From Chloroflexota bacterium (GTDB lineage: Bacteria; Chloroflexota; Chloroflexia; Chloroflexales; Chloroflexaceae), in assembly GCA_013388805.1 (NCBI GenBank), contig JACAEO010000392.1, positions 1 to 48,357 on the forward strand: a DNA stretch of 48,357 nt. The letters run 5' to 3'. Each line of letters begins with the position of its first letter. The first letter of the stretch is position 1. The position numbers and the translations under genes are program-made. Positions 1 to 27,846 of this stretch are shown in pieces. Under the pieces are notes generated by a model, which was given only the letters and a program-made list of their open reading frames with translations, was not told where the DNA came from and ran no database searches.

Positions 1-13
1 CCCCCCCCCCCCC
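1..13. repeat. Terminal poly-C homopolymer (13 nt); probable sequencing/assembly artefact at contig end
   Basis: Read directly: 13 consecutive C at the 5' end, mirrored by a 42-nt poly-G run at the 3' end. Confidence 0.85.
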
Positions 14-104
14 AAACACCAGCGAACAAACACCTCGTGGAGTAGCGCAGCAGCCCCACACCCCACCGCGGGAGGCGGACGGCGCACAGCATTGAGGTGG
101 TATA

Positions 105-1244
105 ATGCGCCTCCGATACGCCCCGGTTGGCGGCGGCGCTGCGCTGGAGACGCTCGTGACGTATTCGCTCGCGCTCAGGCCGAGCGCGCCCGCCCTCCGA
201 CGCCCACAGCGGCTCATCCTCAAGGTCGAGGGCGAACAGGTCGCGGATGTGGAGTACCGTCCAGACCACGCTGACCTCGCACCATTCGCGCGGCTGGAGC
301 GCATGAGCTATAGCGAACTGGCTGAGGCGGCGCTTGGCTGTTGCCCGAGTTGTGGTATTGCCCACGCGCTGGCCCTCTGCCAGGCGATCGAAGCGCTCGC
401 TGCCGTGCGGCTGCCACCGCGCGCGGCCTACCTGCGGCTGGCCGCAGCAGAACTGGAGCGCGCAGCCTCCCATCTGACGACCCTGGCGGCGCTCTTCGGC
501 GCGCTGGCCCTCCCTTACCTGGCTGAGGCCTGTGCCGCCCAGGCGAGTGCCACGCGCACCGTGCTCACCAGCCTGGCCGGCAGCGCCCCCGCTGCCTGGA
601 TCGTGCCTGCCGGACTGGCGCGCGACATTACGCCCGGGGAAGTGACGGTCCTGTGGTCGGCCGCAACCATCCTGGAACGGCTCTTCCCCCTCGCCGAGCA
701 TACTATTGCCCGACGGAGCCTGCTGGCCCGCACGGTCGAGATCGGCGTGATCAGCGCGGGTGCGGCCGAGCAGTTCGGGCTGGCCGGGCCGCTCGCGCGT
801 GCCGCCGGGCTCACCGCCGATCTGCGGTGCGATGCGCCCTACGCGGCCTATGCCGATCTGACGCCCGGCCTGGTGACCCAGGAGGGCGGTGACGTGCATG
901 CGCGCATGGTGGTGGTGCTGCTCGAGGCGCTGGAGGCGCTGCGGCTGGTAGAACGGGTTGCGCGCGCCTTGCCGGATGGGCCGGTTGGCGCGTCGCTGCC
1001 GGACGAGCTCCCGGCGGGGTCGGCGAGCGCCGCGGTGGAGGCGCCACGCGGCCCGCTACGCTATGATGTGGCGAGCGACGGACGCCGGCTCAGCGCGGTC
1101 AATGTCCGCTGTGCGCCACAACTCGACCGGCTGCTGGCCAGGACGGTGCTGGCGAACGCGGCCCTGGATGATGCGGCACTGATCGTGGTCTCCACCGATC
1201 CGTGTGATGCGTGTCTGGCTGTGAGCAGCGATCAGCTGGCGTAA
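105..1244 (+). CDS. NuoD / group-4 [NiFe]-hydrogenase large-subunit-like protein, divergent
   Basis: 379-aa ORF with GAGGTGG Shine-Dalgarno-like box 4 nt upstream of the ATG. Family landmarks in the translation: CPSCGIAH (C80, C83, H87; nt 342-365) where hydrogenases carry CxxCxxxH; GLAGPLARAAGLTADLRCDAPYAAY; GDVHARM; EAPRGPL; C-terminal DPCDAC (C367, C370). An HRGxEK-type motif is not recognisable. Confidence 0.7.
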   Translation: MRLRYAPVGGGAALETLVTYSLALRPSAPALRRPQRLILKVEGEQVADVEYRPDHADLAPFARLERMSYSELAEAALGCCPSCGIAHALALCQAIEALAAVRLPPRAAYLRLAAAELERAASHLTTLAALFGALALPYLAEACAAQASATRTVLTSLAGSAPAAWIVPAGLARDITPGEVTVLWSAATILERLFPLAEHTIARRSLLARTVEIGVISAGAAEQFGLAGPLARAAGLTADLRCDAPYAAYADLTPGLVTQEGGDVHARMVVVLLEALEALRLVERVARALPDGPVGASLPDELPAGSASAAVEAPRGPLRYDVASDGRRLSAVNVRCAPQLDRLLARTVLANAALDDAALIVVSTDPCDACLAVSSDQLA

Positions 1245-1247
1245 AGT

Positions 1248-2963
1248 ATGCTCAACCCTGGCTTTATCATCCTGCTGGCTGGTGCGGCGCTCTGCTTCGG
1301 GCTGAGCCGCCTGGTGCCCACCCGGACGCTGGGCCTGGTTGCTGCGCTCGCCGCCTTGCTGGCGGCCGGCGCGGTGGCCCTGGCGCCGGCGCCGGGCGCT
1401 GAACAGGCCACGGTGGAGGTGCTCAGCATCGGCGGGGCGCGCTTCACGCTGGCGCCCGGGCTCGCAGCTGGCGAGCGCGCCGTGGCCCTGGCTCTGCTTG
1501 GCGGTGGCGGGGCGGCGCTGCTCGGGTTGGCCGGCGCGGTGGCTGCCGCTGTGCGCGGCTTTGGCACGGTGTTCGCCTGGTCGCTGCTCTGCCTGGCGGC
1601 GGTCCTGTTCAGCCTCAATGCGCCGCCGCTCTCACTGTTTCAGCCGCAGTCGTGGTCGGTGCTGGCGCTGGCCGGCTATGGGGCGTTGCGCGCCAGTGGC
1701 ACGGCTGCGCGCAGCGGGGCGCCGCCGCTCGGGGTGAGCTTCGGGCTGGCGGCCAGCGCGCTGCTGATGGTGGCCCTGCTCGTCGGCGGACCGGCCCTTG
1801 CCGCGGGCGGCAGCACGGCCTGGCCTGCGGCTGGCGCCGGGCTGCTCGCGGCCCTGGGGCTGGCAGCCTGCGCTCCGCTGATGAATGGCCGTGACGATAG
1901 CACAGAGGCCCCCGCGCTGCTGGGCGCGCTGATCTTCGGGCTGAGCGCGCCCGCAGCGGCGCTCGGCTGGCTGCTGCGGGCTGTGGCCGCGCTGCCTGCG
2001 CTGCCCGGTAGCTGGAGCACGATGCTGGGCCTGGTTGGTGGCCTGGGGGTGCTGGCATGCGGCGCGGGCGCCCTGGGCGAGCAGCGGCTGCGGGCGCTGC
2101 TCGGCTGGGCCTGGGGCAGCCAGGCCAGCCTGGTGGTGGCCGCTGTTGGCCTGCGCGGGCCGCTTGCCGTCGTGGCGGGGCCGAGCCTGCTGCTGAGCCT
2201 GATGCTCGGCGCGGTGGTCGCGGCCGCAGCCGCCGCGGGGGTAGAGCATCACACCGGCAGCGACGACTACCGCGATGGGCGCGGGGCGGTGCCGCGCCTG
2301 GTGGTCCTGGCCTGGACCCTGGGGATCCTCGCCAGTCTGGGGCTGCCGCCGCTCTGGGGCTTCTGGGGGCGGCTCTGGCTGCTGACGACGGCCCAGGTGC
2401 AGCAACCATGGCTGGTGGCGCTGGTGATGGCCGGAATGGTACTGCTGGCGCTCGCGCTGCTCGCCCCGCTGGCCGCTATGCTGACCCCGGCTGATGCGAC
2501 CCGGCCGCGCAGCAACTGGGCCGACCTGGCGCCAGTGGGGCTTGCCGGGGGCGCGCTGCTGGCGCTGGGCCTGGCTCCGCAACTGGCCTGGGCGCACTGG
2601 CCAGGCCAGTTGCCGCTGGCGCCGCTCCAGGCGCCGATCGCGCCCGTGGTGCAGGGAGCCGCCGTGGCCGCCGGGCTGGCGCTGCTCGCGCTGGGCATCC
2701 TGCTGGTCCGCGCGCGGTCGGCACGCACCCTGGCGCGCGACCCGGACGAGGAGGCGGTTCGCCTGGCCCCTGAGGCCCTGGGGGCGCTGCTCCAGCCGCT
2801 GGCCTGGCTCGCCAGGCCGGCGCCCTTGCTGCACGGCCTGTGGCTGGCGCTGCAGCTGGCCAGCGAGTTGCTGCGCATCCCGGTGGGCTTGTTCGAGCAA
2901 CGCTACTACCTGCTCGGCGTCCTCGGGGCGCTGATCACGATCATGCTGCTGATGGCACAGTAG
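1248..2963 (+). CDS. NuoL/M/N- or MrpA/D-like antiporter-type membrane subunit, degenerate
   Basis: 571-aa very hydrophobic ORF starting 4 nt after the previous stop. GLPPLWGFWGRLWLL resembles the GLPPxxGFxxK motif of proton-antiporter-type subunits. The translation contains no lysine. Confidence 0.55.
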   Translation: MLNPGFIILLAGAALCFGLSRLVPTRTLGLVAALAALLAAGAVALAPAPGAEQATVEVLSIGGARFTLAPGLAAGERAVALALLGGGGAALLGLAGAVAAAVRGFGTVFAWSLLCLAAVLFSLNAPPLSLFQPQSWSVLALAGYGALRASGTAARSGAPPLGVSFGLAASALLMVALLVGGPALAAGGSTAWPAAGAGLLAALGLAACAPLMNGRDDSTEAPALLGALIFGLSAPAAALGWLLRAVAALPALPGSWSTMLGLVGGLGVLACGAGALGEQRLRALLGWAWGSQASLVVAAVGLRGPLAVVAGPSLLLSLMLGAVVAAAAAAGVEHHTGSDDYRDGRGAVPRLVVLAWTLGILASLGLPPLWGFWGRLWLLTTAQVQQPWLVALVMAGMVLLALALLAPLAAMLTPADATRPRSNWADLAPVGLAGGALLALGLAPQLAWAHWPGQLPLAPLQAPIAPVVQGAAVAAGLALLALGILLVRARSARTLARDPDEEAVRLAPEALGALLQPLAWLARPAPLLHGLWLALQLASELLRIPVGLFEQRYYLLGVLGALITIMLLMAQ

Positions 2964-2968
2964 ACCCC

Positions 2969-3697
2969 ATGGAGATCAACTGGTTTACCATCGCGATCGG
3001 GGCAACGGCAGCAGTGGTGCTGCTGTTCCGTGACTGGCGGCTAACCTTTGCCGCCCTGCTGCTGAACTACCTGGCCCAGGCGCTGTTTCTGGCCCAGCAG
3101 CGCTTCGTGCCGCCCGACCTCGCGATCTTCGGGCTGGAGCTCAGCACCCTGGTGTTCGTCAAGCTGATCACCGGCGTCGCGGTCACCCTGATCCTGGGGA
3201 TCACCGCGCTGACCTTCTCGCGCGAGTACGGGCTCGAGAACCTCGACGAGTTTGGTCTGGCCGAGTTGCGGCGGGCCGCGCGCGCGGCGCAGCGCCAGCG
3301 CGCCAGTGCGCCATTCCAGTTCAGTGACTACGTCGTGCCCTTCTGGGCGGGCGTGCTAGCGCTCATGGCCAGCCTGGCGCTCCCGCGCATCTACCCGATC
3401 GGCCCCTCTGCGGCGGTCGACTTCGCCTGGTACTGGCTGACGCTCATCGGCCTGCTGACGATCGCCACGGCCACCGACCTGCTCAAGATCGGTCTCGGCT
3501 TGCTGCTCTGCACGAGTGCCATCGATCTGCTCTATGTCGCGGTGGTGAGCGCCCCGGAGGCCAGTGGCCTGAACGTCGTGCCCCTGGTCCTGCTCAGCCT
3601 GATCAACGTCCTGCTGGCCCTGGCGGTGGCGTATTTGAGCGGATTGCTCTACGGACGGCTCAAGACGCTTGAGTTGAGTGAGCTCTACCGGCGTTAG
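2969..3697 (+). CDS. Polytopic membrane protein, possibly NuoJ/NuoK- or MrpC-like small subunit
   Basis: I chose ATG 2969 (MEINWFTIAIG...), 6 nt after the previous stop, rather than the track start 2840, which overlaps the preceding gene by 124 nt. Several hydrophobic helices. Function assigned from context only. Confidence 0.5.
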   Translation: MEINWFTIAIGATAAVVLLFRDWRLTFAALLLNYLAQALFLAQQRFVPPDLAIFGLELSTLVFVKLITGVAVTLILGITALTFSREYGLENLDEFGLAELRRAARAAQRQRASAPFQFSDYVVPFWAGVLALMASLALPRIYPIGPSAAVDFAWYWLTLIGLLTIATATDLLKIGLGLLLCTSAIDLLYVAVVSAPEASGLNVVPLVLLSLINVLLALAVAYLSGLLYGRLKTLELSELYRR

Positions 3698-6077: not shown

Positions 6078-7160
6078 GTGAGCGACGTCATCGAGATCGA
6101 GGAGTTGTTCAAGGCCTATGGCAGTCTGCCGGTGCTGCAGGGGTTGAGCCTGCGCGTCAGGGCGGGTGAGGTCTACGGCCTGCTGGGGCCGAATGGCGCC
6201 GGCAAATCAACCCTGATCCACCTGATGATGGGCTTTCTGCGCCCGAACCAGGGCCGGCTGCGGCTGTTCGGCTCCACCAGGCTGGAGCGCATGCGCGCCC
6301 GCATCGGCTACATCCCTGAGCGTCAACGCTACCACACCCGCTACAATGCCCGCGAGTACCTGCGCTTTCTGGGGCAGTTCAGCGGTCTGACGGGGGCCGC
6401 GTTGCACGAGCGGGTGGAGCGCGAGTTGATCGCCGTGGGGTTGCGCGATGCCGCCGAGCGGAGCCTTGGCACCTACTCCAAGGGCATGCTGCAACGCCTG
6501 GGTGTGGCCCAGGCCCTGCTCTGCGATCCGGACCTGCTACTGATCGACGAGCCGACGAGCGGTCTTGACCCGGCCGGCCAGCGTGAAGTGATCGAACTGC
6601 TCGCCAGCGTGCGCGAGCGCGGCCACACCGTGTTTCTCTGCACCCACTACCTGCAGGAAGTCGAAGTGCTCTGCGACCGGGTGGGAGTGCTGGCGGGCGG
6701 GCGCATCGCCGCTGAGGCCCACACGCGCGAGTTGCGTGAGGTGGCGAGCAGTGTGCGTATCAGTGTCAGTCCGCTCGGGGCCGAGGTGCAGGCGCAGATC
6801 GCGGCCCTGGGGCCAGGCGTGCGCTGTGAAGAACGGAGTGTGCGGCTCAGCCCGAACAGCGCCGCGCTGCAGGCAGCGGTGCTGCAGGCGCTGCTCGATG
6901 CCAGGGTTGCGATCATCGCCCTGGAGCCGCTTGAGAGCCCGCTGGAGCGGCTCTACCGCGAGGCGGTCCACGAGACGCTGCCCAGCCCGGGCGAGGCCCA
7001 TGGGCTGCCCGCTGCGCTCTGGGATCTGCCGCTCCCCGGCGAGCAGTCGCCACCAACGCCCGCCGATGGGCGGCGTGGCGAGGGCGATACGCTGCTCAAC
7101 GAACTGCTCGGCCGCAACGATCGCGACCAGGATCCGGGCGAGCGCACGCCAGGGGCGTAG
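6078..7160 (+). CDS. ABC transporter ATP-binding protein (ABC-2/DrrA-like, with C-terminal extension)
   Basis: GTG start preceded by GGAGGCGAGGAG. Walker A GPNGAGKST, signature YSKGMLQRL, Walker B LLLIDEPTSGLD, H-loop region FLCTHYL. Confidence 0.9.
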   Translation: MSDVIEIEELFKAYGSLPVLQGLSLRVRAGEVYGLLGPNGAGKSTLIHLMMGFLRPNQGRLRLFGSTRLERMRARIGYIPERQRYHTRYNAREYLRFLGQFSGLTGAALHERVERELIAVGLRDAAERSLGTYSKGMLQRLGVAQALLCDPDLLLIDEPTSGLDPAGQREVIELLASVRERGHTVFLCTHYLQEVEVLCDRVGVLAGGRIAAEAHTRELREVASSVRISVSPLGAEVQAQIAALGPGVRCEERSVRLSPNSAALQAAVLQALLDARVAIIALEPLESPLERLYREAVHETLPSPGEAHGLPAALWDLPLPGEQSPPTPADGRRGEGDTLLNELLGRNDRDQDPGERTPGA

Positions 7161-7272
7161 TCTCCGTGGCCGCTGGCCGTGGTTGGTGTTCCAACGGCCC
7201 GGGCCAGTGGCGGCCAGGATCGGGTCAGGGGCATTGGCGTCAGGAAGGCTCCCTAACCAGAGCGGACATGCT

Positions 7273-8019
7273 ATGCGTCTCCTTCGCTTTACGGGCTTTA
7301 CCCTGCTGGAGTACCTGCGCTCGGGGCGGATCGTGATCGAGATCGTCGCCCTGCTGGCCGTATTCTTCATCTTTCTGCGGCGTCCGATGAATGCCCAGTA
7401 CTTCTTCAGCGTGCTGGGCGTCTTCACGCCGGCGCTCACGCTGTACACCATGGCCGCCTTCATCGGTCTTGGCGACCGGCCGCAGGGCTATGTGCTGCTC
7501 GCGCGGGGGGTCGGGCGCGGCACCTTTTTGCTCGGCCTGTTCTTCGGCGCTTGCACCATCGTGGCGGGCGCCTACGGGCTGCTGAGCCTCGCCACGGCCG
7601 GCCTCAACCGCCCGGTCGACCTGGGTTTCGGCGACTGGCTGCTCGGCACCCTGCCACTCCTGCTCAACATCAGCCTGCTTGCCGCCCTGTTGCTCATGCT
7701 CTCGCCGCTGGTCTTTCCCACCGGCTGGCGCCTGGTCGTGCTGGGGCTGATCGCCCTGGCCTTCTCCAGCAACTTCATCGGCGGCACGCTGCTCGTCGCA
7801 TTGCCCGACGCGGTGCGCTCCGTCTTGCGGGCGCTGCAGGCGCTGCTGGGCGGGCCACTGGTGCCGGCGTTCTACGGCTTCCAGCTGGCAGTCACGCGGG
7901 ACTACAGCACGCCGACCGCGATCGCGAACATCCTGGCGCAGGCCTCACTCCTTGTCTCGCTGCTCGGCCTGTCGATCTATGCCTTTGCACGGCGAGACTT
8001 GATTTTTAGTAATCAATAG
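7273..8019 (+). CDS. Membrane protein, probable permease partner of the ABC ATPase
   Basis: ATG 7273 (MRLLRFTGFTLLEYL...). The upstream part of track ORF 6736-8019 overlaps the ABC gene in another frame. About 6 hydrophobic segments. Function assigned from position only. Confidence 0.55.
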   Translation: MRLLRFTGFTLLEYLRSGRIVIEIVALLAVFFIFLRRPMNAQYFFSVLGVFTPALTLYTMAAFIGLGDRPQGYVLLARGVGRGTFLLGLFFGACTIVAGAYGLLSLATAGLNRPVDLGFGDWLLGTLPLLLNISLLAALLLMLSPLVFPTGWRLVVLGLIALAFSSNFIGGTLLVALPDAVRSVLRALQALLGGPLVPAFYGFQLAVTRDYSTPTAIANILAQASLLVSLLGLSIYAFARRDLIFSNQ

Positions 8020-8055
8020 CAATGTGAACTGGCTCCTGGGGAGGAGAACGACCTG

Positions 8056-8796
8056 ATGAGCGCTGGCACAACCAGGGAGCGGGCCGACGGGCTGATCGCG
8101 CGGGGTCGCGCGTTATTGGAGCAGGGCGAGCTGGCGCGGGCGACCGAGCTGCTCAACCAGGCGGTCCGCCTCTACTGGGCGGCAGGCGAGCAGTACACGG
8201 CCGCGGCGCAGATCGGCAACTACGGCTGGGCGCTGCGCCGCACGGGCCGTGCAGACCTGGCGCGGCCCTACCTGGAGCAGGCAGCCACACTCTTTGCGCA
8301 GTTGGGGCTGCAGGAGTTTGCCGAGCGTCACCGGTTCGCCGCCGAGGATGCAAACCCCGGCATCACCGCAGAGTTGCTCGCCAGCCTGCCGCCAGCGGTG
8401 CGTGGGGCGTTGGAGCGGGCCGACGTGGCCGGGCTGCAGGGGGCACTGGATGCGCTGCCGATCGCCGAGCGCGCGCTCGTGCTGGAGCGACTGATGGCCG
8501 CTGGCGTCGTCACCGCGCTGGACGGCGACGACGCTGCGACGGACCACGCCGAGGCGTTGCGCCAGTTCGAGCCGCTGCTGCAGGGCATCGTGGCCGTGGC
8601 CCGTGGCGCGGAAGCCGAGCGCGCCGAGGTCGAACTGGCCCTGGAGGACGTGGAACGCAAGGGCTGGCGGCTGCGCACTGCCGCCGCGCAGATCTGGGCC
8701 GGCGAGCGGCGCCTCGCGTCGCTCACCGATGGGCTCGACGAGCTGGATCGCGCGCTGATCGCGCGCATCCTTGCCATGCTCGCCGAGGCGGCGTAG
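8056..8796 (+). CDS. Hypothetical protein with TPR-like N-terminal helices
   Basis: 246-aa ORF with GGAGGAG 8 nt upstream of the ATG. Ala/Leu/Glu-rich helical repeats. No motif I can name. Confidence 0.5.
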   Translation: MSAGTTRERADGLIARGRALLEQGELARATELLNQAVRLYWAAGEQYTAAAQIGNYGWALRRTGRADLARPYLEQAATLFAQLGLQEFAERHRFAAEDANPGITAELLASLPPAVRGALERADVAGLQGALDALPIAERALVLERLMAAGVVTALDGDDAATDHAEALRQFEPLLQGIVAVARGAEAERAEVELALEDVERKGWRLRTAAAQIWAGERRLASLTDGLDELDRALIARILAMLAEAA

Positions 8797-8906
8797 CCCG
8801 CGGGGAGTGGAACAATCTGCCTGCTGCGCTGAGAATGGTCATCTGGCAACCTCCAGTTCGATGGCGTCTCCTCAGGCGATATGGTACTGTGCGTGGAGGG
8901 CACGTA

Positions 8907-9044
8907 ATACCGCTTCTGCTTGATGGCATCGCATTGGCTCAGTTCTACACCTCCACAGCTCTACAGCGCTACAAAGTCCTGTGTGGAGCTGGAGCGCTGT
9001 GGAGATGAGCGGGACAATGCGGGATTGTCAATTCCAACTGGTAT
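8907..9044 (+). repeat. 138-bp palindromic intergenic repeat, copy A (MITE/REP-like)
   Basis: By hand alignment, roughly 92 percent identical (about 11 mismatches) to the reverse complement of nt 11188-11325. Built from CTCCACAG/CTGTGGAG and AGCGCT-centred words. The termini ATACCG...CTGGTAT are themselves inverted. Confidence 0.85.
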
Positions 9045-9052
9045 AAGCGGCT

Positions 9053-9367
9053 ATGCTGCAGCACTATCTGGATCAGATTGACTCCTGGCTGGCCCGTGGT
9101 GAGCGGGTGGCAGTGGCGACCGTCGTGCAGACGATCGGCTCGGCGCCGCAGCAGGCGGGCGCGAAGCTATTCGTCACCACGGGCGGGGCCATGGCCGGCT
9201 CGGTGAGCGGCGGCTGCATCGAGGGCGCCGTCTTTGCGGCCTGCCAGGAGGTGTTGGCGAGCGGACAGGCTCGCCTCTTGCACTTCGGTGTGGCCGACGA
9301 GACGGCCTGGGAGGCGGGCCTGGCCTGTGGCGGAACGATCGCGGTGTTCGTTGAAGTGCTGGGATAA
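9053..9367 (+). CDS. XdhC/CoxI-family N-terminal-domain protein (molybdoenzyme maturation accessory)
   Basis: 104-aa ORF. VATVVQTIGSAPQQAGAKLFV...GSVSGGCIEGAV is the typical XdhC_CoxI domain pattern. Confidence 0.75.
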   Translation: MLQHYLDQIDSWLARGERVAVATVVQTIGSAPQQAGAKLFVTTGGAMAGSVSGGCIEGAVFAACQEVLASGQARLLHFGVADETAWEAGLACGGTIAVFVEVLG

Positions 9368-9372
9368 GCGAC

Positions 9373-10092
9373 GTGACGCAGCTCTACGACAAGTTGCGCG
9401 CAGCCATCCGGGCAGAGCAGCCGGTGGCGACCGCGACGCTGATCAGCGGGGCGGGGCCGATTGGCGCGAAACTGCTGCTCTGGCCCGCTGGCACGATCGA
9501 AGGCAGCCTGGGCGACGCCAGGCTCGACGCGGTGGCCCGCGATGCGGCAGCGCCGCTGCTGGCCCGGGGCGTGAGCCGCCAGGTCGAGCTGGCGGACCTG
9601 GGGGTCACGCTCTTCGTCGAGAGCTTTGTGCCGCCGCCGAGTCTCTTTATGGTGGGCGGCGTCCACATCGCGGTCGCGCTGGCCAGCATGGCCCGGGTGC
9701 TGGGTTTCCGCACCGTGGTGGTGGATGCACGTGCCGCCTTCGCCAGCGAGGAGCGCTTCGCGCACGTGAGCGAACTGGTGCTAGAATGGCCGGACGTGGC
9801 CCTGGCCGGGCGGCTGGATGCGCGGAGTTGCGTGGCGGTACTCACCCACGACCCCAAGCTCGACGATCCGGCGCTGCGGGTGGCGCTGCGTTCGCCGGCC
9901 TGCTACATCGGCGTACTGGGCAGCCCGGCAACCCATGCGAAGCGCCTGGCGCGCCTGAGCGCCGAGGGCTTCAGCGAGCAGGAGCTGGCCCGTATCCACG
10001 GGCCGATCGGTCTGGCGATCGGCGCGAAGACGCCCGAGGAGATCGCGCTGAGCATCCTGGCCCAGATCGTTGCCGTACAGAGGAAGGCTTGA
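9373..10092 (+). CDS. XdhC family protein (XdhC_CoxI plus Rossmann-like domain)
   Basis: GTG start 6 nt after the previous stop. ATLISGAGPIGAKLLL..GSLG, then LFMVGGVHIAVALASMARVLGFRTVVVDAR, DPKLDDPAL, YIGVLGS. Confidence 0.8.
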   Translation: MTQLYDKLRAAIRAEQPVATATLISGAGPIGAKLLLWPAGTIEGSLGDARLDAVARDAAAPLLARGVSRQVELADLGVTLFVESFVPPPSLFMVGGVHIAVALASMARVLGFRTVVVDARAAFASEERFAHVSELVLEWPDVALAGRLDARSCVAVLTHDPKLDDPALRVALRSPACYIGVLGSPATHAKRLARLSAEGFSEQELARIHGPIGLAIGAKTPEEIALSILAQIVAVQRKA

Positions 10093-10094
10093 CC

Positions 10095-10352
10095 ATGGAC
10101 ACGAGGCTGGCCGAGTTGCTCTACGAGGGTGCGCTGGCGCTGCAGCAGGGCGACAAGGCCCGGGCGCGCGAGTTGCTGCTGCAGGTGGTGGAGGCCGACG
10201 AGCGGATCGAAGAGGCGTGGCTCTGGCTGAGCGGCGCCGTGGACGACCCCGAGGATCAGCGCACCGCCCTCGAGAATGTCCTGGCGCTCAATCCGCAGAA
10301 CGCGCACGCGCGCTACGGCCTCGCGGTGCTGGACGGAAAAGACAACGGGTAA
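10095..10352 (+). CDS. Small TPR-like protein
   Basis: ATG 10095 lies 3 nt after the xdhC stop. 85 aa: ALALQQGDKARARELLLQVVEADERIEEAWLWLSGAV...ALENVLALNPQNAHARYGL. The long track ORF 9234-10352 is an out-of-frame read-through of the xdhC genes. Confidence 0.55.
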   Translation: MDTRLAELLYEGALALQQGDKARARELLLQVVEADERIEEAWLWLSGAVDDPEDQRTALENVLALNPQNAHARYGLAVLDGKDNG

Positions 10353-10440
10353 AGGGGCTGGGTTCAGAAGGGTTCCGCGCAACTCAGCTCGTCGCCCCCA
10401 CCCGAACCCGCCCCGAAACCGCGCTCCCGGGCTTGCGTGG

Positions 10441-10767
10441 TTACGGATGCTTCGGCGCACGTGGGCGGCGCGCGCCGCTGCGCTGTGGGTCGGATCGGGC
10501 AGGCGGGGGGGCATGCAGGGGCGCCTCCGGGGCTTCACGCTGCTCGGTCTGCCCCACCCAGTAGGTGTTGCGGCCCACGGTGGCAACGGCGCGAACCTGT
10601 ACGCCGGCCACGTCGGTGAGCTCGGCCTCATTCACCAGGACCAGGGTGGGCTGGACGCCGTGGAAGCGATCGCGGTAGGCGGCCATCGCCGCCGCGATCT
10701 TATGGCTCACACTGAGCCTGGGGTTGTCGTCGTACCACATCAGGAAGGGCGGGCTCTTTGCGGGCAT
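10441..10767 (-). CDS. Hypothetical protein (second gene of an orphan two-gene operon)
   Basis: 108-aa ORF, 9 nt downstream of the preceding minus-strand gene, with G/C-rich third codon positions. No motif recognised. Confidence 0.45.
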   Translation of the reverse strand: MPAKSPPFLMWYDDNPRLSVSHKIAAAMAAYRDRFHGVQPTLVLVNEAELTDVAGVQVRAVATVGRNTYWVGQTEQREAPEAPLHAPPPARSDPQRSGARRPRAPKHP

Positions 10768-10776
10768 GGGCGCCTC

Positions 10777-11064
10777 CTACCACTGAACGTGCCACGTGCC
10801 GGCACGCAGATCCTGAAACAGGGTGCAGCAGCGCCGATCGGCGCAGGTTACCGCGAAGTAGCGCCGATCGGCGTGGCCGCCCCGGCCAGCTACCTCCCAG
10901 ATGCGCTCGATCCGCGCGATGCGGTGCAGGGCGCCCCGGGCGCGGAAGCGCGCCGGCAGGAAGCCATAGCGCCGTTCGGTGAGCTCGACCGGGTCGGCGG
11001 GCCGGTGGCCCTGCCGTGCGAACTGGGGGCGGAGGAGCGGAGCGGTACGCCAGGTGATCATCAT
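10777..11064 (-). CDS. Hypothetical small protein (first gene of an orphan operon)
   Basis: I chose ATG 11064 (MMITWRT...) because the track start 11130 lies inside the predicted -35 box. The C-terminal pattern LPARFRARG..H.I..IERIWEV...RRYFAVTC....LFQD...GTWHV reminds me of the tail module of ImuB-type proteins. This is from memory and unverified. Confidence 0.45.
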   Translation of the reverse strand: MMITWRTAPLLRPQFARQGHRPADPVELTERRYGFLPARFRARGALHRIARIERIWEVAGRGGHADRRYFAVTCADRRCCTLFQDLRAGTWHVQW

Positions 11065-11101
11065 ACGAGCCTCGCGGTGGTGTGTGTCACTGCTGGCGTT
11101 G

Positions 11102-11130
11102 AGTATATCAGAACAAATGTTCAATGTCAA
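11102..11130 (-). promoter_or_regulatory. Sigma-70-type promoter for the minus-strand orphan operon
   Basis: Minus strand reads TTGACA (11130-11125), a 17-nt spacer, then TATACT (11107-11102), about 38 nt upstream of ATG 11064. Confidence 0.6.
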
Positions 11131-11187
11131 GCTTGAGTTCGTTATGCGGGTGTGTTATGATCACAGGGAGGAGGGCAGGTGCAGGTA

Positions 11188-11325
11188 ATACCAGGTGGAA
11201 TTGGCAATCCCGCATTGTCCCGCTCATCTCCACAGCGCTCCAGCTCCACACAGGGCTTTGTAGCGTTGTAGTGCTGTGGAGGTGTGGAGGTAAGCCAATG
11301 CGATGCCATCAAGCAGAGTCGGTAT
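11188..11325 (-). repeat. 138-bp palindromic intergenic repeat, copy B (inverted relative to copy A)
   Basis: Its reverse complement aligns end to end with nt 8907-9044 (see copy A). Confidence 0.85.
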
Positions 11326-11337
11326 AAGGTGAGGGCC

Positions 11338-11649
11338 ATGGCCCAGCGCGACAGCACAGCGGCAGCAGGGGAGCGTGAGCGGCTGGTGCGCCAGTATCGC
11401 GACCTGCTCGGCGAGTACAAAACGGTGAATGCCGAGCTAGCCGATCGCTCGTGGACGCTGGCCGAGCTAGAGCAGCAGATCGCGGCGCTGGAGGCCGCGG
11501 CGGCGCCAGGCGATCGGCGCGCGGCGGGACGGCTGCGCGCGCTGCGGCACTGGCGCGGCACGCTCGAGGAGCAGGTGCTGGCCCACATGTACCGCGCCGA
11601 GGCGATCGCGGCCGAGCTTGCCCGCTTGCGGGCTGCGCTTGAGCGATAG
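11338..11649 (+). CDS. Hypothetical coiled-coil protein
   Basis: ATG 11338 (MAQRDSTAAAGERERLVRQYRDLL...), 103 aa, heptad-like Leu/Ala/Glu/Arg-rich sequence. Preceded by GGTATAAGGTGAGGG. Confidence 0.45.
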   Translation: MAQRDSTAAAGERERLVRQYRDLLGEYKTVNAELADRSWTLAELEQQIAALEAAAAPGDRRAAGRLRALRHWRGTLEEQVLAHMYRAEAIAAELARLRAALER

Positions 11650-11654
11650 CCGGG

Positions 11655-12152
11655 CTACTCCAGCACCAGTTCGCCACTCCGCCCACCGCGCTTGGCGACG
11701 AGCCGGATCTCACTGATGCGCATGGCGCGATCCACCGCCTTGCACATATCGTAGATCGTCAGAGCGGCGACACTCACCGCCGTCAGCGCCTCCAGCTCCA
11801 CCCCGGTCTGCCCCGTGGTGCGCACCGTCGCCTCGATCTGCAGGGCATTGGCCCCCGGGTCGGGCTCGATCGTCACGCTCACGTGGGTGAGCAGCAGGGT
11901 GTGGCAGAGCGGGATGAGCTCGGGGGTGCGTTTGGCTGCCATGATGCCCGCGATACGGGCGGTGGCCAGCACGTCGCCCTTGGGCGCGGCACCGCTCATA
12001 ATCAGCTGGAGCGTGGCCGGCTGCATGCTGATCATCCCGCGGGCCACCGCCTCGCGCCGGGTTTCCGCCTTGGCGCCCACATCGACCATCTGCGCGCGGC
12101 CCTGTGCATCCAGGTGGCTGAGCTGCGGCTGCTCCTCGTTGGCGTGATTCAC
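11655..12152 (-). CDS. moaC: Cyclic pyranopterin monophosphate synthase MoaC
   Basis: 165 aa. [75 protein letters not shown] are characteristic MoaC segments. Confidence 0.9.
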
Positions 12153-12585: not shown

Positions 12586-13017
12586 GTGTTCCTGGGAGAG
12601 TTCGAGCACATCATCGATGAGAAGGGCCGTGTCGCCATCCCCGCCCGTTTCCGTGAGGAACTGGGCGAGGGATTTGTTTTGACCCGGGGCTTCGAGCCGT
12701 GCTTACAGGCCTTCCCCTACCCGATCTGGCAGCAACTCTCCGAGCGGGTCAGCAAGTTGCCGTTTGCCAGTACCGAGGCGCGTAATATGCGCCGGATCCT
12801 CTTCTCACTGGCCGCCGAGGTGGAGATTGATCGTCAGGGGCGCATTCTCATCCCGCAGAACCTGCGCGAGTATGCCAGCCTGGCCGAGCAGGTGGTGATC
12901 AGCGGGATGAACACCTACTTTGAACTCTGGTCGGGCGAGCGCTGGAACGAGCTGCAGACGACGCTCACGGAGCAGGGGGCTGCGATCGCCGAGCAGTGGG
13001 CCGATCTGGGGATCTGA
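12586..13017 (+). CDS. mraZ: Transcriptional regulator MraZ
   Basis: GTG start, 143 aa. Two MraZ half-domains: [18 protein letters not shown] and [18 protein letters not shown]. Confidence 0.9.
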
Positions 13018-13031
13018 GGGATGGACGCATT

Positions 13032-13979
13032 ATGGGCCAGCCTGAGCCGTCTGCGTTTCAGCACATTCCGGTGCTGCTGCCGGCGGTGCTCGCCGCACTA
13101 CAGCCACGGCCCGGCGCCTGCTTCATCGATGCAACGGTGGGCGGCGCGGGCCACGCCCTGGCCGTGCTGCAGGCCGCTCAGCCCGGCGGGCGGCTGCTCG
13201 GCATCGATGCCGACCCGGCGGCGCTTACGGCGGCCGCGGCGCGGCTCGGCGCTGCTGGCCTGCCCGCGGCCAGTTTCACCCTCGTCCATGGCCACTTCGC
13301 CGAGCTGGCAGCCCTGGCCCGCCAGCATGGCTTCGGCGCCGTCGATGGCATCCTGCTCGACCTGGGTGTCTCGTCCTATCAACTCGATACGGCGGCGCGC
13401 GGTTTCAGCTTCGCGGCCGATGGCCCGCTCGATATGCGTCTCGACCCGGGTGGCGGCCCCACCGCCGCCGATCTGGTGAACCAGCTGGATGAACAGGAGC
13501 TGGCTGACGTGATCTATCGCTATGGCGAAGAACGAGGTTCGCGGCGCATCGCGCGCCTGATCGTCGAACGGCGCCGCCAGGCGCCGATCACGACGACCGG
13601 CGAGCTGGCTGACCTGGTCCAGCGGGCGATCGGGCGCGGCGGGCGGGAGCGCATCCACCCGGCGACCCGCACCTTCCAGGCGTTGCGCATCGCCGTCAAC
13701 CAGGAGCTTGCCCAACTGGAGGCGGCCCTGCCCCAGGCCGTGGCGTTGCTCCGGCCCGGCGGTCGCCTGGCGGTGATCAGCTTTCACTCGCTCGAGGATC
13801 GGATCGTGAAGCAGTTCTTTCGCGCCGAGTCGGGCTATGGCGCCGGTGAGCCCCAGCACCCGCCTCGCCTGACGGTTCTGACCCGTAAGCCCATCGTGGC
13901 CGATGCGGCGGAATGCGCCGCCAACCCCCGCGCACGCAGCGCAAAGCTGCGCGTCGCCGAACGCCGCGCTGCAGCATGA
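13032..13979 (+). CDS. rsmH: 16S rRNA (cytosine1402-N4)-methyltransferase RsmH
   Basis: ATG 13032 ([16 protein letters not shown]). [46 protein letters not shown]. Confidence 0.9.
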
Positions 13980-14037
13980 GCGCTGGCGGCCCGGCGAGCG
14001 GCCGCCAGTCGTGTTTATCCGAGATAGGAGAGAGTGC

Positions 14038-14454
14038 ATGGCCGTCAACTCGCACCGCGTCTCATCGATCGCAGGCGCCCGCGCGCGCCGTCTGGCGCTG
14101 CCGCGCTACCTGCGCCTCGATGGCTCACGCTATCTGCTCGGCCTGGTGATCATGCTCTGCCTGATGAGCCTGATCGTGCTCGCCCAGACCGGCGTGGTGG
14201 CCACCAGGGGGTATGCGATCAGCGACCTGGAGGCCGAGAAGGTGAGCCTGCTCCGCGAGCGAACCCAGCTCCAGGAGCGCCAGGCGCGCGCCCACTCGCT
14301 CGAGCGCATCCGCCGCCGGGCTGAGCAGAACGGCCTGCGCCCGGTCCGCGATGGGCAGATCCGCTACCTCGAACTGCCCGCCCGCTCAGCGCCGGCCGCC
14401 CCGCCGGTCGTACCGGCCGGCCAGCCCGATGCGAGCAGCGACCGCGACGAATAG
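14038..14454 (+). CDS. ftsL: FtsL-like cell-division protein (single TM plus coiled coil)
   Basis: ATG 14038, 138 aa. One hydrophobic helix (LLGLVIMLCLMSLIVLA) followed by LEAEKVSLLRERTQLQERQARAHSLERI. Sits in the canonical position between rsmH and the PBP gene. Confidence 0.55.
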   Translation: MAVNSHRVSSIAGARARRLALPRYLRLDGSRYLLGLVIMLCLMSLIVLAQTGVVATRGYAISDLEAEKVSLLRERTQLQERQARAHSLERIRRRAEQNGLRPVRDGQIRYLELPARSAPAAPPVVPAGQPDASSDRDE

Positions 14455-14498
14455 CAGCGGCACGCGCGCCGCTTCACGACCAGGACGGTACCAGAGCG

Positions 14499-16307
14499 AT
14501 GGCTACCCGTAGCACAACCCGGCTCGATCGACCCCGCGCCTCCACCGGCGGCGCGCACGTCCGGCTTGCCCGCTGGCGGATCAATGCCATCCTGCTGCTC
14601 TGCCTGCTGCTGATCGCCCGTGTCGTCCTGCGCCTCGGCGAACTGCAGGTGCTGCGCCACGGCGAACTGCGTACCCTGGCCGAGCGTGAGATCGCCCAGC
14701 AGATCACCCTGCTGCCCACCCGCGGCATGATCACCGATCGCCTGGGCAATGTGCTGGCCATGGACGTGGACCGCGAGAGCCTGTGGGTTATTCCCGGCCT
14801 GGTCGACCAGGAGAAGGCGCCACGCCTGGCGCTGACCCTCGCGGCGCTGGTGGGCAAACCCGCCGATAGCATCCTCGATGCCCTGACGGACACGAAGCAC
14901 TACTGGCTGCCGGTGGCGCGCTGGCTCGAACCGGAGGTCGCTGCCCAGATCGAGGCGCTGAATGAGCCCGGGCTGCGCCTCGAGTACGAGCCGCGCCGCG
15001 TCTATCCTCAGGGCTCGTTTGCCGCCCAGGTGATCGGCGCCGTCAATTTTAACGGCGAAGGCATTAGCGGGATCGAGGCCTTCTATGACTCGCAGCTCAA
15101 GGGCATCACCGGGACGCTCGAGGCCGAGTTCGACGGCGCCCGCAAACCGATCGCGATCGCGCCCTCGCGCACCGTGCCGCCGCGCAACGGTATCAACATC
15201 CAGACGACGATCGACCCGCTCATCCAGTACGTGATCGAGCGTGAGTTGAAGACCGCTGTCGAGGATCACAATGCTGATGGCGGGTCGATCATCGTCATGG
15301 ATCCGCGGACGGGCGCGATCCGCGGGATGGCCAGCTGGCCCTCCTTCGATCCGAACCGCTACGGCGATTATCCGGAGGAGGTCTACGCGCGCAACCCGGC
15401 GGTCAGCAACCTCTACGAGCCGGGGAGCACCTTCAAGATGATCACCGTGGCCGCGGGGCTGCAGGCGCGGGCCTTCACCGCGGACACCGTGGTCAACGAT
15501 ACCGGGGTGGTGTTCCGCTACGGCTACTCATTGAGCAACTGGAACAGCGGCGCCAATGGCATGCTCGATTCCGAGCGGGTGCTCTACTTCTCCAGCAACG
15601 TCGGCGCATTGCAGCTCAACGAGTTGACCGGCCCCGAGCGCTTCTATGCCGCCCTGCGCGACTTCGGCTTTGGCCGGCCGACGGGTGTCGAGCTCGGTGG
15701 CGAGGAGCAGGGGATCGTCAATAGCTGGGGGAGCCCGACTTACAACGACCTGAATTTCCTCACCAACGCCTATGGCCAGGGCATCTCGGTGACCCCGCTG
15801 CAGATGGTGCAGGCGGCCGGGGCGATTGCCAACGACGGTGTGATGATGAAGCCGTACATCGTCGAACGGCGCTGCGAGGGCACGGTCTGCACCGATACCG
15901 AGCCGGTGGTGGTGGGCCGCCCGATCGAGCCCGGTGTGGCCTGGACCGTGCGGCAGATGCTGGTCCACTCGGCCAACCACTACAGCCCGGTGGTGTGGGG
16001 GCCGATCACCGGCGACTACAGCGATACATGGCTCGTGCCCGGCTATCGGGTAGGGGCGAAGACCGGTACCTCGAGCATTCCGATCGAGGGCGGTGGCTAC
16101 GATCCGAACTATACGATCGGCTCGGTGCTGGGCTTTGGCCCGGTGGACGAGGCACACTACGTGGTGCTGGTCAAGATCGACCGGCCCAAGGACGATATCT
16201 GGGGCGTGGGCACCGCCATCCCGGTCTTCTACAAGGTGATGGACGAGTTGCTGCGTTACGAGCGGATTCCTCCCGACCCGGGTCTGGTTGATCCGGGGCA
16301 GTCATAG
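14499..16307 (+). CDS. ftsI: Penicillin-binding protein 2/3 class (peptidoglycan D,D-transpeptidase, FtsI-like)
   Basis: 602 aa with an N-terminal TM helix. SxxK in GSTFKMIT, SxN in FSSNVG, KTG in GAKTGTS. Confidence 0.85.
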   Translation: MATRSTTRLDRPRASTGGAHVRLARWRINAILLLCLLLIARVVLRLGELQVLRHGELRTLAEREIAQQITLLPTRGMITDRLGNVLAMDVDRESLWVIPGLVDQEKAPRLALTLAALVGKPADSILDALTDTKHYWLPVARWLEPEVAAQIEALNEPGLRLEYEPRRVYPQGSFAAQVIGAVNFNGEGISGIEAFYDSQLKGITGTLEAEFDGARKPIAIAPSRTVPPRNGINIQTTIDPLIQYVIERELKTAVEDHNADGGSIIVMDPRTGAIRGMASWPSFDPNRYGDYPEEVYARNPAVSNLYEPGSTFKMITVAAGLQARAFTADTVVNDTGVVFRYGYSLSNWNSGANGMLDSERVLYFSSNVGALQLNELTGPERFYAALRDFGFGRPTGVELGGEEQGIVNSWGSPTYNDLNFLTNAYGQGISVTPLQMVQAAGAIANDGVMMKPYIVERRCEGTVCTDTEPVVVGRPIEPGVAWTVRQMLVHSANHYSPVVWGPITGDYSDTWLVPGYRVGAKTGTSSIPIEGGGYDPNYTIGSVLGFGPVDEAHYVVLVKIDRPKDDIWGVGTAIPVFYKVMDELLRYERIPPDPGLVDPGQS

Positions 16308-16398
16308 GCGCAGCCGTTGCGCCACCGGCGGCTATCAGCTACTTCTCATCAGGCGCGGCGTCGCCGCGGCGCATGGGAGAGGAGAACATGAACTATAA

Positions 16399-17922
16399 TT
16401 GCCCCCGGTTATCCCCTGCGATCGATGGGGTGCGGAGGGCATCGTGCTGCGATTGATCGATGTGCTCATTGGCGTGCAGCCGCGCTGGTCACGGCGTTCA
16501 CCGGAGCTTGCACCCGCCTGGCAGGCGGTGCGTTTCGGCGAAGTGGTGACCGACTCGCGGGAGGTTGAGCCGGGGACGCTCTTCCTTGCCCTGGCCGGTG
16601 AGCGTACCGATGGACACAATTTTCTGGCCGATGTGCTGGCGCGCGGCGCGCGGGGGGCCCTGGTCACCCGCGCGGCGGTGGAGGCGCGACGCACGGCCCT
16701 CGGTGGGCTCGCCCGCCCCTGGGCCATCGTCGATCCGGCCACCGGCGAGGGTCTGGCCGATACGCCGCCCGATGCGTGTCTGCTCATCGCCGTAGACGAT
16801 CCGCTTCTGGCCATCCAGCGGCTGGCCGTCTACCATCGCCGACAGCTCACGCCGACCGTTGTTGGTATCACCGGTAGTGTGGGCAAGACCTCCACCAAGG
16901 AGGTCGTGGCGGCCGTCCTGGGCCGCCGGTTCCGAACCTTAAAAAGTAAACGCAGCTATAACAGTGAGGCCACCCTCCCGACCTCCCTGCTCCGGCTCAC
17001 GCCCGACCACGAGGTCGCCGTGCTGGAACTGGGCATGTGGGCGCCGGGCGAGATCCGCTTTCTAGCGGCGCTCGCCCGGCCCCAGGTCGGGATCGTGACC
17101 AATGTCGGCCCGACCCACCTGGAGCGCCTGGGCAGCCTCGCAGCGATCGGGTGGGCCAAGAGTGAATTGCCCGAAGCCTTGCCCGCTGATGGCTGGGCCA
17201 TCCTCAATGCCGATGACCCACGCGTGCTGGCCATGGCCGCCCATACGCCGGCCCACGTCTTCACCTATGGGCTGGCCCCCGATGCCGACCTGCGGGCCGA
17301 TGAGCTGGTGAGCTTCGGCCTCGATGGGATCGGCTTCACCGCTCACCACGCCGGCGTCAGCATTGCCCTGCGCCTGCCCCTGCTCGGCAGGCATAGCGTC
17401 TATACGGCCCTGGCTGCCGCAAGCGCTGGCCTGGTGCTCGGCCTCAGCTGGCATGAGATCAGCGCTGGCCTGTGTGACCCGGAGCCCATGCCACGCGTCA
17501 AGATTGTCGCGGCTCAGGCCGGCGCGACGATCATCGACGACAGCTATAATGCCGCCCCGCTCTCCATGCTCGCCGCCCTCGATCTGCTCGCCGAGCTCGC
17601 TGGCCGCAAACTTGCCGTGCTGGGCGATATGCTCGAACTGGGCGCTACGGAACAGGCGGGCCACCACGCCGTGGGCCGGCGCGTTGCCCAGGTGGCCGAG
17701 ACGCTGATCGCGCTGGGTCCCCGGGCGCGCTGGATCGCTGAAGCGGCCCGCGAGGCAGGGATGGCTGCCGCGCAGGTGCACGTCGCCGACTGCCACGAGC
17801 AGGTCATCGCCGCCCTGCGCCCGTTGCTGGCACCCCGGACGTATGTGCTGGTCAAGGGTTCCCGCGGGATGGAGATGGAGCGCATCGTCACAGCACTACA
17901 CCGGCGACTGGAGGAGGAGTAA
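16399..17922 (+). CDS. murF: UDP-N-acetylmuramoyl-tripeptide--D-alanyl-D-alanine ligase MurF
   Basis: VVTDSREVEPGTLFLALAGERTDGHNFL, GITGSVGKTSTKE, YNSEATLPTSLL, VTNVGPTHLERLGS. The track start is TTG 16399; an in-frame GTG at 16444 is an alternative start. Confidence 0.85.
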   Translation: MPPVIPCDRWGAEGIVLRLIDVLIGVQPRWSRRSPELAPAWQAVRFGEVVTDSREVEPGTLFLALAGERTDGHNFLADVLARGARGALVTRAAVEARRTALGGLARPWAIVDPATGEGLADTPPDACLLIAVDDPLLAIQRLAVYHRRQLTPTVVGITGSVGKTSTKEVVAAVLGRRFRTLKSKRSYNSEATLPTSLLRLTPDHEVAVLELGMWAPGEIRFLAALARPQVGIVTNVGPTHLERLGSLAAIGWAKSELPEALPADGWAILNADDPRVLAMAAHTPAHVFTYGLAPDADLRADELVSFGLDGIGFTAHHAGVSIALRLPLLGRHSVYTALAAASAGLVLGLSWHEISAGLCDPEPMPRVKIVAAQAGATIIDDSYNAAPLSMLAALDLLAELAGRKLAVLGDMLELGATEQAGHHAVGRRVAQVAETLIALGPRARWIAEAAREAGMAAAQVHVADCHEQVIAALRPLLAPRTYVLVKGSRGMEMERIVTALHRRLEEE

Positions 17923-17923
17923 C

Positions 17924-19021: not shown

Positions 19022-19028
19022 TCCGCCG

Positions 19029-20519: not shown

Positions 20520-21301
20520 CCCAACCACCCGATGAGCGCGAGGCCCAGACCGGGCCGCCCGAGCCAGCCGGAGCGCAACGCATCCCCGTACGCGTGGCCT
20601 GGGGCACCCAGCCACGGGCCGCCTATGCGATCCTGGCGGCGATTGCCATCATCTACCTGCTGAGCGCCCTGCTGAGCGGCGGGCTGTTTCAGCCCTCGTT
20701 GCTGGTGCTGATCGTGCTCGGCGCCAAGGAGAACAGCCTGATCGATGCGGGCCAGTACTGGCGCCTGCTGACTGCCACGTTGCTGCACGCGAACCTGATC
20801 CACGTCTTCTTCAATAGCTTCGCGCTCTACGCCCTTGGCCCGGAGAGCGAGCGGATCTATGGCACCGCCCGCTTCCTCGCCGTCTATCTCCTGGCGGGGA
20901 TCGGGGGCAGCGTGGCATCCTACCTGCTCTCGCCGGTGCCCTCGGTGGGCGCCAGCGGCGCCATCTTCGGCCTGATCGGCGCGCTGGGCATCTTCTACTA
21001 CCTCAACCGCGCCACGCTCGGCGATTTCGGGCGCGCCCAGTTGCAGAGCATGGCCGCCATTGCGGTGATCAACCTGATCATCGGCTTCTCGTCCCCCGGC
21101 GTGATCGATAACTGGGGACATATGGGCGGCCTGGCCGTTGGCACGCTGACCGGCCTGGCTCTGGCGCCGCGCCTCGCCATCAACCTGGACCGCTACCCGC
21201 CCGTCCTGGTCCGCAGCTTTCCGCCGTGGGGCTGGGGCGCCGCGCTGGCGACCTTCGCCGCGCTGGCGGCGCTGGCACTGTTACTGCCCGGGGCCGGGTG
21301 A
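20516..21301 (+). CDS. Rhomboid-family intramembrane serine protease
   Basis: ATGA overlap with the murD stop. WRLLTATLLHANLIHVFFNSFALY, catalytic-Ser region GASGAIFGLIGA, catalytic-His region WGHMGGLAVG. Confidence 0.8.
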   Translation: MTQPPDEREAQTGPPEPAGAQRIPVRVAWGTQPRAAYAILAAIAIIYLLSALLSGGLFQPSLLVLIVLGAKENSLIDAGQYWRLLTATLLHANLIHVFFNSFALYALGPESERIYGTARFLAVYLLAGIGGSVASYLLSPVPSVGASGAIFGLIGALGIFYYLNRATLGDFGRAQLQSMAAIAVINLIIGFSSPGVIDNWGHMGGLAVGTLTGLALAPRLAINLDRYPPVLVRSFPPWGWGAALATFAALAALALLLPGAG

Positions 21302-21329
21302 CGCTCGCCCCGGTGCCAAGGGGGGACCA

Positions 21330-27829: not shown

Positions 27830-27846
27830 GGCAGGGACCCACGCAG

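Follow-up and report, generated by a model that had tools for sequence, protein, structure and literature searches.

A homolog of hydrogenase large subunits that keeps the metal ligands of a [NiFe] site, encoded among membrane-protein genes at the very edge of a contig, raises the question of whether the locus specifies a hydrogenase at all and, if it does not, what kind of complex has kept such a protein. We addressed this question for the gene designated g1, which lies at the start of a 48,357-nt stretch of DNA from a Chloroflexota bacterium (hereafter, the window; Table 1).

Table 1. Features at the start of the window, with the basis of each assignment.
Feature	Position (nt)	Strand	Basis
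5' intergenic/leader region of the cluster, with SD-like GAGGTG	14–104	+	Matches the L001 intergenic region
SD-like GAGGTG	94–99		
g1, NuoD/HycE/MbhL-like large-subunit homolog, 379 aa	105–1244	+	Intact ORF, PF00346, PDB alignments
CPSCGIAH motif of g1 (C80, nt 342–344; C83, nt 351–353; H87)	342–365		
DPCDAC motif of g1 (D365; C367, nt 1203–1205; C370, nt 1212–1214)	1197–1214		
g2, strongly diverged antiporter-like subunit (NuoL/MrpA/MbhH family), 571 aa	1248–2963	+	PF00361, profile
g3, 7-helix membrane protein, 242 aa	2969–3697	+	Alignments; helices predicted
g4, antiporter-like subunit (MrpD/NuoM/N/MbhH family), 483 aa	3706–5157	+	PF00361, profile
g5, NuoH/ND1/HycD/MbhM-like membrane subunit, 269 aa	5201–6010	+	AF2 and Foldseek
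g6, ABC-2-type (DrrA/NodI/GldA-like) ATPase	6078–7160	+	Sequence matches, synteny
g7, membrane protein, probably the ABC-2 permease of g6, 248 aa	7273–8019	+	Synteny, PF12679

The g1 start codon (ATG105) follows the SD-like element by 5 nt. The encoded protein matched the Pfam model Complex1_49kDa (PF00346) with an E-value of 1.4e-28 and a score of 100 bits (cut-off, 24 bits), in line with the NuoD/HycE-like assignment made in an earlier sequence-only reading of this DNA. Its top matches among solved structures were HycE of the E. coli formate hydrogenlyase (7z0s_E; 2e-29) and MbhL of the Pyrococcus membrane-bound hydrogenase (6cfw_L; 7e-25), and the NuoD chains of complex I ranked below both. 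In these alignments, CCPSCGIAH of g1 was paired with VCGICGFAH of HycE and MCGICSFSH of MbhL, and DPCDAC with DPCYSC and DPCLSC, respectively. This pairing of the CxxC motifs places the four Cys residues of g1 on the [NiFe] ligand columns, with C80, C83, C367, and C370 corresponding to C68, C71, C374, and C377 of MbhL, and bears out the earlier claim that the ligand positions are kept. H87, S122, A313-P314-R315, and D365 matched other residues of the MbhL active-site shell as described in PMC11228991. Across 121 g1 homologs, each ligand Cys was kept in 109–119 sequences and H87 in 120. The blocks PYAAY, GDVHARM, and EAPRGPL were also present. The protein had previously been called short, but members of the g1 family are about 358 aa long, which is a normal size for the nearest group-4 large subunits (357–418 aa).

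The similarity of g1 to known large subunits differed along its length: the C-terminal half was nearer to group-4 [NiFe] large subunits than to NuoD, and the best alignment of the N-terminal two-thirds was with NuoD models. The full protein reached 136.6 bits against the NCBIfam NuoD model NF004739 (cut-off, 360) and 114 bits against TIGR01962 (cut-off, 459). For comparison, outgroup large subunits scored 257–365 bits, and all of them matched generic NuoD models in NCBIfam, which does not separate them into subtypes.

To place g1 in its genomic context, we ran tblastn with the first eight proteins of the window against 83 loci, mostly species representatives of Chloroflexus, Roseiflexus, Oscillochloris, Viridilinea, Ribeiella, and other Chloroflexales. 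The order g1-g2-g3-g4-g5-g6-g7 was kept in essentially every locus of sufficient length, with g1 identity among syntenic loci down to 40%. Thus, g1 heads a seven-gene cluster conserved across Chloroflexales, whose members are separated in the window by 3, 5, 8, 43, 67, and 112 nt. In locus L083, g5 and g6 were relocated together, apart from g1–g4, which supports a link between these two genes. A candidate g1-g2 fusion in L017 was rejected because a TAA stop lies between the two genes.

The upstream boundary of the cluster could be read from a 99%-identical contig (L001), whose g1 protein (P0001) is 99% identical to that of the window. In L001, the sequence upstream of g1 comprises a 225-bp intergenic region followed by a divergent minus-strand Aminotran_3 gene, and the leader region of the window matches this intergenic region. 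The first 13 nt of the window (poly-C) differ from L001 (gcggcgcagccgcc in L001 versus CCCCCCCCCCCCC in the window) and are a contig-end artefact. The upstream layout of loci L002 and L003 was like that of L001. The sequence-only reading had suspected that an upstream operon was lost at the contig edge and that an open frame at nt 15–95 was the tail of a lost gene; both suggestions fall with L001, where the full intergenic region and the divergent Aminotran_3 gene are present and the stretch in question is intergenic. Among loci with at least 3 kb of upstream sequence, the aminotransferase gene was found in only about 17 of 56, and the other upstream genes were unshared. The cluster therefore starts with g1. 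A search of its upstream region revealed no consensus sigma-70 promoter.

The proteins encoded by g2 and g4 are antiporter-like, with conspicuous substitutions. The g2 protein matched PF00361 at 9e-7 in Pfam, and its family profile matched MbhH at 4e-21 and MrpA, MrpD, and ND5 at approximately 1e-17. Its conserved charged residues were almost nil, and the position of the TM12 Lys was occupied by Arg (GFWGR). The g4 protein, which shares the Proton_antipo_M domain (PF00361) with g2, matched MbhH, NdhD, and NuoM/N. An invariant Arg198 replaces its TM7 Lys, and NQTLAV replaces its HxxxK motif; at the TM12 Lys position, the window protein has Q373, and 29 of 60 relatives have Lys. This extensive replacement of Lys and Glu residues in g2 and g4 suggests that the membrane arm would not pump protons in the canonical Lys/Glu manner.

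The most conserved gene of the cluster was g3, with 71–75% mean column identity and an invariant Arg-rich cytoplasmic segment (SREYGLExLDEFGLAELRRAARAAQRQR). The three C-terminal helices of its product showed a weak likeness to NuoK/MrpC: a profile search against the PDB returned only the MrpC-like chain 6u8y_G at E = 0.43, and Foldseek found nothing significant for the AF2 model (pLDDT 77). For g5, no family was recognized from sequence, and the sequence profile found nothing in the PDB. Its AF2 model (pLDDT 90.3) had 7z7v_H as the best Foldseek match in the PDB (E = 4.9e-5; TMq 0.75), and the 50 PDB matches listed were all of the NuoH type (NuoH, ND1, HycD, MbsM, and MbhM chains); one g5 homolog also matched PF00146 at 2e-5. 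As modeled, g5 has the NuoH fold, and by analogy with related complexes it would be the expected docking partner of g1.

The two remaining genes probably encode an ABC-2-type pair. The ATPase gene g6 was syntenic with g1–g5 in nearly all loci, and g7 probably encodes its permease partner: 2 of 27 g7 members matched PF12679 (ABC2_membrane_2) at 5e-4, and a sequence search of g7 against the PDB returned no match.

We then looked for the electron-transfer subunits that accompany large subunits of this kind. No NuoB, NuoC, or NuoI homolog was found within 10 kb of g1 in the 83 loci, and a crude motif scan of all six frames of these loci and the window returned no NuoB signature (GxCxxxGG...PGCP). 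Pfam searches detected none of the three families across the 48-kb window, so the lack of such genes downstream of g1 that had been noted from the sequence holds for the window as a whole; the called genes of L001–L003 likewise included no small-subunit, NuoC-like, or NuoI-like gene. No conserved Cys motif was found in g2–g7 and no hyp gene in the window, the rest of which encodes XdhC-like proteins, MoaC, the dcw cell-division cluster, malic enzyme, a distant PFOR, and other housekeeping functions. The cluster is consistently without a small subunit, a trait conserved throughout the 83 loci examined. To our knowledge, no characterized member of the complex I/energy-converting hydrogenase superfamily has a NuoD-type subunit without a NuoB-type Fe-S subunit.

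Next, we compared the catalytic features of g1 with those of its nearest relatives outside the family. Outgroups were collected by searching 1.84 billion representatives exhaustively with a profile and aligning the results (n = 120 outgroup representatives). The nearest were ordinary group-4 large subunits, with the four Cys residues present in 90 of the 120 representatives; among these 90, the column of MbhL E21 held Glu in 83, and an x[DE][RK]-type tail, which marks the mature C-terminus or the protease site, followed the L2 motif in 89. The same column holds R33 in g1 (GLEEPEKF versus ALRRPQRL) and G, S, R, Q, or H in core family members. The tail after DPCDAC reads LAVSSDQLA in g1, and the tails of the family are unconserved and devoid of [DE]R in core members. 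Moreover, the second-shell Glu of MbhL (E343) aligned with A337. The region of the HRGxEK-type block, described earlier as unrecognizable, was indeed unconserved, and the loss of the Glu at the E21 column is functionally more telling: this residue, located in the β1–β2 loop, has been put forward as the primary proton donor to Cys374 and takes the same position as His38 of complex I (PMC11228991).

The quinone ligands of complex I were absent from g1 as well, with R33 in place of His38 and P81 in place of Tyr. The Tyr aligned with P81 is that of the RMDYLS motif in the M. smegmatis/Mtb-type NuoD (8e9g_D), which we take to be the quinone ligand Tyr87 (T. thermophilus Nqo4 numbering).

The ligand Cys residues themselves were not uniformly kept. 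At least one was lost in 19 of 83 species-level g1 genes, in six or more patterns that together involve all four positions. These losses include nearer relatives of the window organism, whose g1 proteins are 64–67% identical to that of the window and carry CxxS (L002, L003, and L011) or CxxG (L005). The loci with Cys loss keep the full cluster, and purifying selection continues on their g1 genes: dN/dS was 0.05–0.19 in Cys-loss lineages versus 0.14–0.15 in four-Cys pairs, with the L002–L005 pair (2.4; pN 0.74) left out as a codon-alignment artefact. R315 was often replaced too in Cys-loss genes and was co-lost with Cys in several lineages. Conversely, the four Cys residues together with H87, R315, and D365 were retained in 64 of 83 lineages at an overall identity of 40–68%. 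Judged from this persistence, the metal site is probably maintained in most lineages, the window protein included. The co-loss of R315 with Cys and the retention in 64 of 83 lineages suggest that a working metal site has been selected as a whole, and the g1 protein of the window may well bind Ni-Fe or another metal and carry out chemistry.

Taken together, these data favor, at a probability that we put at roughly 60%, a hydrogenase-derived membrane complex of Chloroflexales without an electron relay, in which the Cys quartet is a retained but dispensable metal site. Such a complex would descend from a group-4 [NiFe] hydrogenase and would have shed all of its electron-transfer subunits (NuoC, NuoI, and the small subunit of the NuoB type), with g1 remaining as a cytoplasmic cap. 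This cap presumably sits on the NuoH-like g5, in the arrangement of Mbh, FHL, and complex I. Occurring in a conserved membrane-protein operon without an Fe-S partner, g1 is probably not a working hydrogenase. The lack of both an Fe-S relay and a relay Glu suggests that the complex would not turn over H2 in the manner of conventional energy-converting hydrogenases. The Cys quartet would then persist as a metal site that serves structure or regulation and that the complex can spare. The membrane arm may perform non-redox (Mrp/Ehr-like) handling of ions or substrates, probably together with the linked ABC-2 transporter; we favor this functional assignment with less confidence than the architecture itself, as it is drawn from synteny and residue patterns. 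The label "hydrogenase-type" in the sequence-only reading accordingly needs to be divided: it suits the ancestry and the first-shell ligands of g1, and it does not extend to catalysis, given the missing relay Glu, [DE]R tail, and Fe-S relay and the repeated loss of Cys.

An alternative that we regard as improbable is that g1 holds a genuine Hyp-matured [NiFe] center without an Fe-S relay and acts as an H2 sensor or gate, or reduces menaquinone directly through the NuoH-like subunit. The [NiFe] pocket coincides in position with the quinone pocket of complex I, and the presence of the NuoH-like g5 suits this proposal. All first-shell ligands and the further shell residues listed above match those of MbhL (PMC11228991), the ligands have persisted in 64 of 83 lineages, and R315 disappears with them in some of the others. 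A second, His75-based proton route was judged feasible in the MbhL study (PMC11228991), and H87 is kept in 120 of 121 homologs. Nevertheless, the second-shell Glu (A337 in g1) is absent along with the relay Glu, the [DE]R C-terminus is lacking, the window contains no hyp genes, and the quinone ligands of complex I are missing as well (R33 and P81 in g1). In addition, 19 of 83 lineages have lost Cys while the cluster and purifying selection remain intact. The specific version in which a [NiFe]-type center on the NuoH-like/antiporter-like arm passes electrons from H2 directly to menaquinone, or makes the arm an ion or transport device that senses H2 or is gated by it, seems to us a little more doubtful still.

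We also considered whether g1–g5 join NuoB/NuoC/NuoI-type subunits encoded elsewhere, for example in the nuo sets of Chloroflexus, to form a conventional group-4 or complex-I-like enzyme. The general large-subunit fold family of g1 would permit such an assembly, and in Chloroflexus aurantiacus the nuo genes form two sets, of which one is loosely arranged (PMC3150298). However, each of these sets already has its own nuoB and nuoD (PMC3150298), the absence of partners near g1 is conserved in 83 loci, and the catalytic Glu would still be missing from g1. Group-4 and complex I operons keep the large and small subunits adjacent, and we know of none in which the two are apart. We therefore consider this arrangement quite unlikely. 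Finally, the notion that g1 is a 5'-truncated remnant of a standard hydrogenase operon or a decaying pseudogene, prompted by a window that begins just 104 nt upstream of g1, is refuted by the complete intergenic region and divergent gene on the longer 99%-identical contig, intact full-length ORFs, a dN/dS of about 0.05–0.2, and conservation of the operon across the whole order.

Targeted full-text searches found no description of the g1 cluster in the literature, and the genome paper of C. aurantiacus does not mention it (PMC3150298); the suggestion in the sequence-only reading of an undescribed group-4-related lineage agrees with the distinct lineage found here. When HydDB was applied to hot-spring Chloroflexota in a published study, the only outcomes were groups 1f, 2a, and 3d or "NONHYDROGENASE," for inputs that may not include a g1 homolog. 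Database labels for the g1 family vary among "ech hydrogenase subunit E," "nickel-dependent hydrogenase large subunit," "NuoD," and "hypothetical," and with labels this inconsistent, a group-4 hydrogenase could be attributed in error to filamentous anoxygenic phototrophs in metagenomic surveys.

The cluster appears to have kept, order-wide, a large subunit with metal ligands and a NuoH-like anchor, yet to have discarded all electron-transfer subunits, and could thus provide a natural experiment on the role of the large subunit apart from redox catalysis. It also informs the gain and loss of modules between Mrp, hydrogenases, and complex I. A [NiFe] center without an Fe-S relay, if true, would be a new architectural class in the complex I/group-4 hydrogenase superfamily. 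Because the cluster occurs in cultivable Chloroflexus and Oscillochloris strains, among them Chloroflexus islandicus isl-2, Chloroflexus sp. MS-G, and Oscillochloris trichoides DG-6, its function is testable.

Comparison with known systems sets the cluster apart from each of them. With the group-4 hydrogenases (P. furiosus Mbh, 6CFW; E. coli FHL/Hyd-3, 7Z0S; and Ech-type enzymes), it shares the fold family of the large subunit and its size of about 360 aa, the CxxC...CxxC ligand Cys residues with the His, Arg, and Asp of the active-site shell, and an operon that combines a NuoH-like anchor with antiporter-like subunits. It differs in having no small, NuoC-like, or NuoI-like Fe-S subunit; in a large subunit without the relay Glu (MbhL E21), the second-shell Glu (E343), and the [DE]R C-terminus; in an L1 motif of C[GP]xC rather than the CG[IL]C of the group-4 outgroup; in ligand Cys residues that are dispensable among relatives; in antiporter-like subunits devoid of the canonical Lys/Glu; and in its linkage to an ABC-2 transporter. 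As the small subunit, relay Glu, and [DE]R tail are all wanting, the cluster is not a group-4 hydrogenase.

Ehr complexes belong to the complex I superfamily, derive from hydrogenases, have Mrp-like subunits, and are thought not to metabolize H2; they are defined by a large-subunit homolog lacking the Ni/Fe-coordinating residues (PMC6349859). The g1 protein of the window keeps all four ligand Cys residues, whereas its relatives in 19 of 83 lineages would fit that definition. Ehr, Mbx, and Mbs reportedly retain NuoB-, NuoC-, and NuoI-type subunits, all of which are absent near g1. Since g1 keeps the ligands and its cluster is without a small subunit, the cluster is not an Ehr complex as defined previously (PMC6349859).

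The match to PF00346 and the NuoH-like partner are the points of likeness with NuoD of complex I (49 kDa/Nqo4), in which the ligand Cys residues are absent. Being far below the NCBIfam cut-offs for NuoD, devoid of the quinone ligands, and in possession of the Cys residues, g1 is not a NuoD; NuoB with its N2 cluster is also lacking nearby. Mrp antiporters have neither a NuoD-type nor a NuoB-type subunit, and the cluster resembles them in its two MrpA/D-like subunits, in a possible MrpC/NuoK-like element in g3, and in the absence of a redox module. MrpB, E, F, and G were not recognized in the cluster, and the Lys/Glu relay conserved in MrpA and MrpD, with its TM5 Glu, TM7 Lys, and TM12 Lys, is largely replaced. 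The cluster is not Mrp, and what further distinguishes it from Mrp is the possession of both a NuoH-like protein and a large-subunit-like protein, neither of which Mrp has.

In L083, a metagenome-assembled locus that is one of the 83 loci with homologues of the cluster, g1–g4 were located at 6582-11874, and the g5–g6 pair was encoded on the other strand, approximately 5 kb upstream of them, with the genes for the NuoH-like protein and the ABC ATPase side by side at 199-1691 (minus strand). The two genes adjoin in L083 though the cluster is divided, and therefore the g5–g6 linkage persists when the cluster splits.

The TPR-repeat protein was found after g7 only in the window and in L001, the contig with 99% identity to it, and was missing from this position in all other loci. 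The position beside the cluster of the MoaC gene and the XdhC/CoxI genes, whose family is of the molybdenum-cofactor insertion chaperone type, was not conserved in other loci.

Features of the window within and beyond the g1–g7 cluster
Feature	Position (nt)	Remark
g3	2969-3697	Highest conservation of any cluster protein
TPR-repeat protein	8056-8796	Immediately after g7
Two neighbouring XdhC/CoxI-family genes and one MoaC gene	9053-10092 and 11655-12152(-)	Shortly past the cluster
Complete dcw cell-division and cell-wall cluster	12586-31356	
Single-chain pyruvate:ferredoxin/flavodoxin oxidoreductase (NifJ type)	37832-41482	1216 aa

The dcw cluster comprised mraZ, rsmH, ftsL-like, ftsI, murE, mraY, and murD, followed by an interposed rhomboid protease gene and then by ftsW, murG, a 228-aa ORF matching no family, murC, murB, ddl, ftsQ, ftsA, and ftsZ. 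On the minus strand, the long ORFs that span 23978-25804 and 26753-27994 are shadow ORFs of murC and ddl. The NifJ-type gene, approximately 30 kb away from g1–g7 and unlinked to them, indicates ferredoxin-linked metabolism in this organism. The run of 13 C residues opening the window (1-13) did not match L001, which has gcggcgcagccgcc there, and probably arose as an artefact of the assembly or of the contig end.

Within the cluster, neither a family nor a structural match was found for the membrane protein g3. Its cytoplasmic motif, F83..Y87..LDEF..ELRRA..R, was invariant and could be a stand-in for the contacts that NuoB and NuoA make on the large subunit.
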